Shown: positions 12,386 to 14,350 of the stretch, piece after piece
Numbering within the stretch: the stretch's first letter is position 1
How the letters are laid out: each line of letters begins with the position of its first letter
Source of the DNA: Escherichia coli
GTDB taxonomy: Bacteria; Pseudomonadota; Gammaproteobacteria; Enterobacterales; Enterobacteriaceae
Direction: 5' to 3' (one strand)
Length of the DNA: 64,000 nucleotides
NCBI RefSeq assembly: GCF_030384885.1
Contig: NZ_CP128613.1
Made by a program: the position numbers and the translations under genes
The notes under the pieces: generated by a model
What the model saw: only the letters and a program-made list of their open reading frames with translations
What the model was told of the DNA's origin: nothing
The model's database searches: none

Positions 12386-14350
12386 GTGAGCATGGATATA
12401 AGCGATTTTTATCAGACTTTTTTTGATGAAGCGGACGAACTGTTGGCTGATATGGAGCAGCATCTGCTGGTTTTGCAGCCGGAAGCGCCAGATGCCGAAC
12501 AATTGAATGCCATCTTTCGGGCTGCCCACTCGATCAAGGGAGGGGCAGGAACTTTTGGCTTCAGCGTTTTGCAGGAAACCACGCATCTGATGGAAAACCT
12601 GCTCGATGAAGCCAGACGAGGTGAGATGCAACTCAACACCGACATTATCAATCTGTTTTTGGAAACGAAGGACATCATGCAAGAACAGCTCGACGCTTAT
12701 AAACAGTCGCAAGAGCCGGATGCCGACAGCTTCGATTATATCTGCCAGGCCTTGCGTCAACTGGCATTAGAAGCGAAAGGCGAAATGCCATCCGCAGTGG
12801 CCCGATTAAGTGTGGTTACCAAAAGTGAACCGCAAGATGAGCAGAGTCGCTGTCAGTCACCGCGTCGAATTATCCTCTCGCGCCTGAAGGCCGGGGAAGT
12901 CGACCTGCTGGAAGAAGAGCTGGGACATCTGACAACCCTAACTGACGTGGTAAAGGGGGCGGATTCTCTCTCGGCAATATTACCGGGCGACATTGCCGAA
13001 GATGACATCACAGCGGTACTCTGTTTTGTGATCGAGGCCGATCAGATTACCTTTGAAACAGTAGAAGTCTCGCCAAAAACATCTCCCCCACCAGTGCTTA
13101 AACTGGCAGCCGAACAAGCGCCAACCGGTCGCGTGGAGCGGGAAAAAACGACGCGCAGCAGTGAATCCACCAGCATCCGTGTAGCGGTAGAAAAGGTTGA
13201 TCAATTAATTAACCTCGTCGGCGAGCTTGTCATCACCCAGTCCATGCTTGCCCAGCGTTCCAGCGAACTGGACCCGGTTAATCATGGTGATTTGATTACC
13301 AGCATGGGGCAGTTACAACGTAACGCCCGTGATTTGCAGGAATCAGTGATGTCGATTCGCATGATGCCGATGGAGTATGTCTTTAGTCGCTATCCCCGGC
13401 TGGTGCGTGATCTGGCGGGAAAACTCGGCAAGCAGGTAGAACTGACGCTGGTGGGGAGTTCTACCGAACTCGACAAGAGCCTGATAGAACGCATTATCGA
13501 CCCGCTGACCCACCTGGTACGCAATAGCCTCGATCACGGTATTGAACTGCCAGAAAAACGGCTCGCCGCAGGTAAAAACAGTGTCGGAAATTTAATTCTG
13601 TCTGCCGAACATCAGGGCGGCAACATTTGCATTGAAGTGACCGATGATGGTGCGGGGCTAAACCGTGAGCGAATTCTGGCAAAAGCGGCCTCGCAAGGTT
13701 TGACTGTCAGCGAAAGCATGAGCGACGATGAAGTCGCGATGCTGATATTTGCGCCTGGCTTCTCCACTGCGGAACAGGTCACCGACGTCTCCGGGCGCGG
13801 CGTCGGTATGGATGTCGTTAAACGTAATATCCAGGAGATGGGGGGGCATGTCGAAATCCAGTCGAAGCAGGGCACAGGTACTACCATCCGCATTTTACTG
13901 CCGCTGACGCTGGCAATCCTCGACGGCATGTCCGTACGCGTTGCGGATGAAGTTTTCATTCTGCCGCTGAATGCGGTCATGGAATCACTGCAACCCCGTG
14001 AAGCTGATCTCCATCCACTGGCCGGCGGCGAGCGGGTGCTGGAAGTGCGGGGTGAATATCTGCCCATCGTTGAATTGTGGAAAGTATTCAACGTCGCGGG
14101 CGCGAAAACCGAAGCCACCCAGGGAATTGTGGTGATCCTGCAAAGTGGCGGTCGCCGCTACGCCTTGCTGGTGGATCAATTAATTGGTCAACACCAGGTT
14201 GTGGTTAAAAACCTTGAAAGTAACTATCGCAAAGTCCCCGGCATTTCTGCTGCGACCATTCTTGGCGACGGCAGCGTGGCACTGATTGTTGATGTCTCCG
14301 CCTTGCAGGCGATAAACCGCGAACAACGTATGGCGAACACCGCCGCCTGA
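12386..14350 (+). CDS. cheA: Chemotaxis histidine kinase CheA long form (654 aa, GTG start)
   Basis: Track ORF trimmed to the GTG at 12386: (V)[19 protein letters not shown]...; P1 histidine motif [14 protein letters not shown] present. Confidence 0.93.

Follow-up and report, generated by a model that had tools for sequence, protein, structure and literature searches.

The cheA locus and its annotation

The region analyzed here, hereafter the window, is a 64,000-nt stretch of Escherichia coli DNA. Its RefSeq annotation was taken from the record NZ_CP027579.1 (E. coli 2013C-4282 chromosome), which is 100% identical to the window and in which window position 1 corresponds to position 567609. 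According to this annotation, cheA lies within the window in the gene order flhDC-motAB-cheAW-tar-tap-cheRBYZ-flhBAE. Its long product, CheA(L), is identical to CheA of E. coli K-12 at 644 of 654 residues (98%) and, by this identity and the shared gene order, is the orthologue of the K-12 protein. The Pfam domains of CheA(L) include Hpt (residues 8-100), CheY-binding (161-223), H-kinase_dim (261-324), HATPase_c (372-508), and CheW (514-640). The features of the locus that are relevant to the two forms of CheA are collected in Table 1.

Table 1. [quoted passage not shown]
Feature	Position	Strand	Basis
Shine-Dalgarno sequence GAGGTGA of CheA(L)	12375..12381	+	Sequence; identical to 'gagguga' in PMC8745638
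cheA long frame, CheA(L), 654 codons, GTG start	12386..14350	+	RefSeq CDS WP_010365122.1
Codon 48 (CAC), His48, P1 phosphorylation site (in AAHSIKGG); CheA(L) only	12527..12529	+	Translation
AU-rich block, codons 84-97, strongest synonymous constraint in cheA	12635..12676	+	Synonymous scan, GC content
Shine-Dalgarno-like GAAGGA of CheA(S)	12667..12672	+	Sequence; identical to published 'gaagga'
ATG codon 98, CheA(S) start codon	12677..12679	+	Frame arithmetic; K-12 homology; literature
CheA(S) frame, 557 codons, nested in frame within cheA	12677..14350	+	Pfam; PDB alignment
cheZ, phosphatase bound by CheA(S) and recruited to receptor clusters	20673..21317	+	RefSeq annotation

The Shine-Dalgarno (SD) sequence of CheA(L) pairs more strongly with the anti-SD than any other site in the gene (-7.2 kcal/mol). 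The stop codon of motB (TGA, 12379-12381) is located inside this sequence, 4 nt 5' of the GTG start, and such an overlap is consistent with a possible translational coupling of motB and cheA. The mechanically longest open reading frame (ORF) of cheA begins at a TTG codon within motB (12332) and not at the annotated GTG, and the longest ORF of tar similarly begins at GTG 14944, upstream of the annotated start at 15019. Codon 98 would thus receive a wrong number in an annotation based simply on the longest ORF.

The cheA allele of the window is approximately 97% identical to that of most of the 5,380 E. coli genomes with cheA. At an identity of at least 99% it was found in only one of the 5,380 genomes, which is the strain itself, and the nearest other allele is 98.6% identical. 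A special divergence of this allele (~3%) was considered and rejected, since argS (25902-27635) behaves likewise, with a match of at least 99% identity in 8 of 5,425 genomes. The divergence thus reflects no more than the membership of the strain in a rare lineage of E. coli.

An in-frame start codon at position 98 and its product

The first-pass annotation had pointed to an ATG at codon 98 of the long CheA frame, preceded by a GAAGGA-like ribosome binding site (RBS), and had read it as the second translation start that gives rise to the short form, CheA(S). The observation is confirmed in all its details. The ATG at 12677 is located 291 nt, or 97 x 3 nt, downstream of the GTG at 12386; it is thus codon 98 and in frame, and the translation across the site is ...LFLETKDI-M98-QEQLDAYK. 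The GAAGGA hexamer at 12667-12672 is separated from this ATG by a spacer of 4 nt, CATC. Its pairing with the anti-SD sequence is modest (-4.8 kcal/mol), and the spacer is short.

The short product lacks residues 1-97, hence His48 and most of the P1 domain, and retains P2-P5. In agreement with the claim that CheA(S) is devoid of the P1 phosphorylation site, the codon for His48 lies upstream of the ATG, and a Pfam search of the 557-residue product gave no Hpt match, while the CheY-binding, H-kinase_dim, HATPase_c, and CheW domains are kept. Residue 1 of the short product aligns with chain residue 98 in PDB entries 6s1k and 2lp4.

The statement that gene callers report a single coding sequence (CDS) is correct for the automatic PGAP annotation of this genome, in which, as in all further E. 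coli records checked apart from K-12, cheA has one CDS. It does not extend to the curated K-12 RefSeq record, where two cheA CDSs of 654 and 557 aa, with starts 291 nt apart, are annotated; the second of them (NP_416402.2) begins at codon 98.

Correspondence with the K-12 short form

Every base from about 12539 to 12720 of the window, SD sequence and ATG included, is identical to K-12 MG1655. The gene, the codon, the RBS, the local nucleotides, and the product architecture are the same as for K-12 CheA(S) (b1888, NP_416402.2), and the K-12 operon motAB-cheAW-tar-tap-cheRBYZ provides the same context as the window. The ATG 12677 of the window and the K-12 start(S) are one and the same feature, a textbook case known since 1980-1991 and not a discovery of this work. 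The K-12 start(S) at codon 98 reportedly goes back to Smith and Parkinson in 1980 and to Kofoid and Parkinson in 1991.

In published work, translation of CheAS starts at ATG-98, the M98L substitution removes this form, and chemotaxis does not depend on it (PMC7696710); CheA(98-655) has been used as CheAS, and M98I as an allele that makes CheAL only (PMC2644175). In its passage citing McNamara & Wolfe 1997, PMC8745638 gives the E. coli RBSs as 'gagguga' for long cheA and 'gaagga' for short cheA. A change of the first RBS shifts total CheA only moderately, the second start using its own 'endogenous RBS' (PMC2716512). Two CheA forms are encoded in S. typhimurium as well as in E. coli (PMC3676780), and an interaction between CheA(S) and CheZ has been described (PMC2644175, PMC1447658, PMC3676780, PMC7696710). 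A literature search combining cheA with retapamulin returned only papers that name CheA(S) as a classic example, and no cheA ribosome-profiling evidence was retrieved by it. The equation of ATG 12677 with the documented CheA(S) start is borne out by the second K-12 CDS at codon 98, the 100% local identity, and the match to the published RBS, and the reading of this codon as the second start of cheA is supported.

CheA of the window differs from the K-12 protein by 10 substitutions in total, five of which (A114D, T134M, T139A, A145T, and S156C) are located within the 60 residues at the N-terminus of CheA(S). In the putative CheZ-binding stretch, A114D and T134M are the substitutions, and residues 98-113 and 115-133, Cys120 among them, are the same as in K-12. 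At the nucleotide level, T134M adds an in-frame ATG at cheA codon 134 (12785-12787), which is preceded by a weak AAAGG (-4.2 kcal/mol). A further difference is one of annotation: the curated K-12 record has the second CDS, and the automatic annotation of the window lacks it.

Proteoforms from internal starts are also known for IF2 alpha/beta (infB), CcmM, and SsaQ, which likewise have two N-terminal forms per gene with distinct roles (PMC11005335, PMC12350097). These proteins are unrelated to CheA, and their likeness to CheA(S) is one of mechanism only, not of family.

Ranking of start candidates from the sequence

All 49 in-frame ATG, GTG, and TTG codons of cheA were ranked by 16S anti-SD pairing (spacer of 4-10 nt) and by the opening energy of the segment from -18 to +12. 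Codon 98 was 9th by SD pairing, 5th by local accessibility, and 3rd by the combined score, where it was essentially tied with codon 81 (ATG 12626, with CGAGG and a 4-nt spacer; 12618-12628). Such a ranking was rejected as proof of a start, since codon 98 is good, yet not unique among the 49 candidates, and on the window sequence alone it does not stand out from chance. The assignment therefore rests on homology and comparative data. The latter do separate the two codons: codon 81 is ATG in 73 of 81 genes among the matches listed and, unlike codon 98, has no synonymous constraint upstream of it.

Conservation of the site in E. coli and other Enterobacterales

Within E. coli the site is nearly invariant. 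A 61-nt block centred on it is identical in 5,371 of 5,378 genomes, and a 30-mer spanning the U-tract, the SD sequence, and the ATG is present in 5,377 of them; the GAAGGA itself is invariant within the species.

For the comparison across genera, we used 80 cheA loci of other Enterobacterales among the matches listed, at 60-95% protein identity, which were collected with six peptide patterns; Salmonella is not part of this sample. One of the patterns, ETKDIMQE, spans the site and biases the amino-acid conservation there, not the synonymous positions. The codon aligned to Met98 is ATG in 81 of 81 Enterobacterales cheA genes (among the matches listed, the window included). The SD sequence behaves differently. 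Codon 95 is AAG, giving AAGGAC, in just 5 of the 81 genes among the matches listed (the window, an E. coli representative, and three scattered taxa), and it is AAA, giving AAAGAY and no SD of the E. coli type, in the remaining 76, as in Citrobacter and Enterobacter. Beyond E. coli the AAGGA lacks conservation, which rules it out as the target of long-term selection. A close parallel to the window is the reported co-expression of CheA(L) and CheA(S) in other Enterobacteriaceae (McNamara & Wolfe 1997; Salmonella CheA). The 80 other Enterobacterales loci share with the window the ATG at the homologous codon and the AU-rich block upstream, but mostly carry AAAGAY instead of AAGGAC before the ATG.

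Synonymous constraint was assessed from codon diversity at the 408 alignment columns in which the amino acid is conserved, each compared with the average for its amino acid. Of 449 nine-codon intervals, the seven with the least diversity are all located within codons 84-98, followed by codons 1-9, the initiation region of CheA(L). Codons 88-97 deviate by -0.24 (z = -6.7), and none of 20,000 column permutations was as low. The minimum did not change when the alignment was thinned to 54 sequences with less than 85% nucleotide identity. The search patterns were considered as a source of this signal and rejected, as the sites of the other five patterns are absent from the low-diversity intervals.

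The constrained block is also poor in GC (0.36, compared with a mean of 0.54 in cheA as a whole, which ranks it among the lowest ~1% of intervals; median over the 81 genes among the matches listed). Its core in the window is ATCAAYCTGTTTTTGGAAAC at 12647-12666, with a U5 tract at 12656-12660. We infer that the block is the translation-initiation region of CheA(S), and it may be this block, rather than the SD sequence alone, that constitutes the conserved determinant of ribosome loading.

Met98 and the fold of the P1 domain

An invariant methionine could reflect the needs of the P1 fold rather than those of initiation. Residues 1-160 were searched against 1.84 billion representative proteins, which yielded 89 usable N-terminal P1 domains. 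His48 is invariant in all 90 aligned P1 domains. The residue aligned to Met98, by comparison, varies with distance from the query: it is Met in 6 of 6 domains at 75% identity or more, Met in 3 and Leu in 17 at 56-74% identity, and Leu, Ile, or Val in 62 and Met in one of the 63 domains at 43-55% identity. The occurrence of Leu, Ile, or Val in distant P1 domains indicates that the fold needs just a hydrophobic residue at this position, not Met, in agreement with the tolerance of M98L and M98I in experiments. In Enterobacterales, the invariance of the ATG at codon 98 is best explained by a role as start codon.

Alternative explanations

The constraint at codons 84-98 could be due to some other overlapping element, such as a hairpin, a target of a small RNA or an RNase, or a pause site, that is found beside ATG-98 by coincidence. 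A hairpin is the most concrete form of this explanation. In the single-sequence fold, CUGUUUUUG (12653-12661) pairs with CAAGAACAG (12680-12688), which places the SD sequence and the AUG in the loop, and the pairing is kept in 91.6% of cells over 29 species, compared with 37-62% for shifted registers. However, the stem shows no covariation beyond that of shuffled alignments (228-261 of 500 shuffles do as well), the RNAalifold consensus amounts to only -2.9 kcal/mol with five weak pairs, and the stability of the local fold does not exceed that of shuffled sequences (z = 0.03). The pairing also results from the conserved peptides LFL and QEQ. The candidate 9-bp stem of A-U and G-U pairs was accordingly rejected as evidence, being maintained without covariation. 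As for other kinds of element, there were no Rfam matches in cheA, and the sole comparable constraint in the gene, at codons 1-9, belongs to the first start and so points to initiation. We regard an element unrelated to initiation as unlikely.

Much less probable still is the production of the short form from a separate transcript, with a promoter inside cheA, instead of by internal ribosome entry on the operon mRNA. No sigma-70-like sites were found at 12300-12800, where 0.2 were expected. A scan with the sigma-28 consensus did not discriminate, in that the positive control, the region 5' of motA, reached no higher scores than positions within cheA. On plasmids with an external promoter, CheAS continues to be made from its 'endogenous RBS' (PMC2716512), and the constrained block directly abuts the ATG (-42 to -1), as would be expected for a ribosome-binding region and not for a promoter followed by a 5' untranslated region.

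Least credible is that ATG 12677 encodes an ordinary internal Met with an SD-like neighbour by chance, any short CheA arising by proteolysis or not being made at all: the third place among 49 candidates in a tie with codon 81, the weakness of the SD sequence and its absence from most other genera, and the position of Met98 within a conserved helix of P1, where some conservation is expected, all agree with this reading, but it is at odds with the second cheA CDS in the curated K-12 annotation, with the loss of CheAS in M98I and M98L (PMC2644175, PMC7696710), which proteolysis does not predict, with an ATG in 81 of 81 genes among the matches listed where Met is not structurally required, and with the location of the most constrained synonymous sites of the gene in the 14 codons that precede it.

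Proposed model of CheA(S) synthesis and function

Taken together, the homology and the comparative data lead us to assign a probability of about 95% to the reading in which ATG 12677 is the start codon of CheA(S) and the motA-motB-cheA-cheW mRNA is translated from two in-frame starts. According to this model, ribosomes that initiate at GTG 12386 with the help of the GAGGTGA sequence would produce the 654-residue autophosphorylating kinase CheA(L). Other ribosomes would load independently on the AU-rich, weakly structured segment 12635-12676 and the GAAGGA at 12667-12672, and would initiate at ATG 12677 to give the 557-residue CheA(S). Lacking residues 1-97 with His48, CheA(S) would not be phosphorylatable; by virtue of P2-P5, it would be expected to dimerize, to bind CheW and receptors, and to donate kinase activity in heterodimers. 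The remnant of P1 exposed at its N-terminus would bind CheZ and thereby localize the phosphatase at the receptor array. Initiation at codon 98, its loss in M98I and M98L, and the interaction with CheZ are taken from the literature on K-12, and the anatomy of the site, its identity to the K-12 sequence, the domain composition of both products, and the evolutionary constraint on the ATG and the preceding 40 nt come from the present analysis. Judging by its sequence, the strain analyzed here probably makes CheA(S).

A more specific proposal concerns the way in which the second start is recognized. CheA(S) initiation across Enterobacterales may be independent of a canonical SD sequence; the AU-rich ATCAAYCTGTTTTTGGAAAC and the U5 tract within it, located where GC content is low and structure is weak, may have been selected as an S1 or standby site for ribosome loading, and the AAGGA of E. 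coli may be a lineage-specific reinforcement acquired through one synonymous change, AAA to AAG. We advance this proposal tentatively and give it somewhat less than an even chance. What is mildly new here is that the determinant conserved throughout the order would be the AU-rich block and not the SD sequence, and McNamara & Wolfe 1997 may already report it.

Significance for genome annotation

The cheA gene of the window is represented by one PGAP CDS, yet it encodes two proteins with different roles: CheA(L) is the kinase, and CheA(S) is an anchor and activator of the phosphatase CheZ. The evolutionary footprint of the internal start consists of an invariant ATG where the fold would accept Leu and of the deepest synonymous trough of the gene just upstream of it. 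Such a footprint could aid in finding undocumented internal starts elsewhere.

Other features of the window

Two RNAs of known families were detected with Rfam. The small RNA MicL (365.8 bits) is located at 28949-29256 on the plus strand, covering the 3' part of cutC and extending just past its end, and the C0465 RNA (83.7 bits) is located at 14894-14971 on the minus strand, in the cheW-tar intergenic region. Two genes for hypothetical proteins, both on the plus strand (41188-42237, 349 aa, and 42275-42859, 194 aa), are located between a yebB-like gene (40717-41280, minus strand) and ruvA; the first of them overlaps the yebB-like gene on the opposite strand by about 93 nt. Neither gene had a match in Pfam, PADLOC, or PHROGs. 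The DNA of the pair (41188-42859) is present in 19 of 5,426 complete E. coli genomes, which characterizes it as a rare accessory two-gene cassette.
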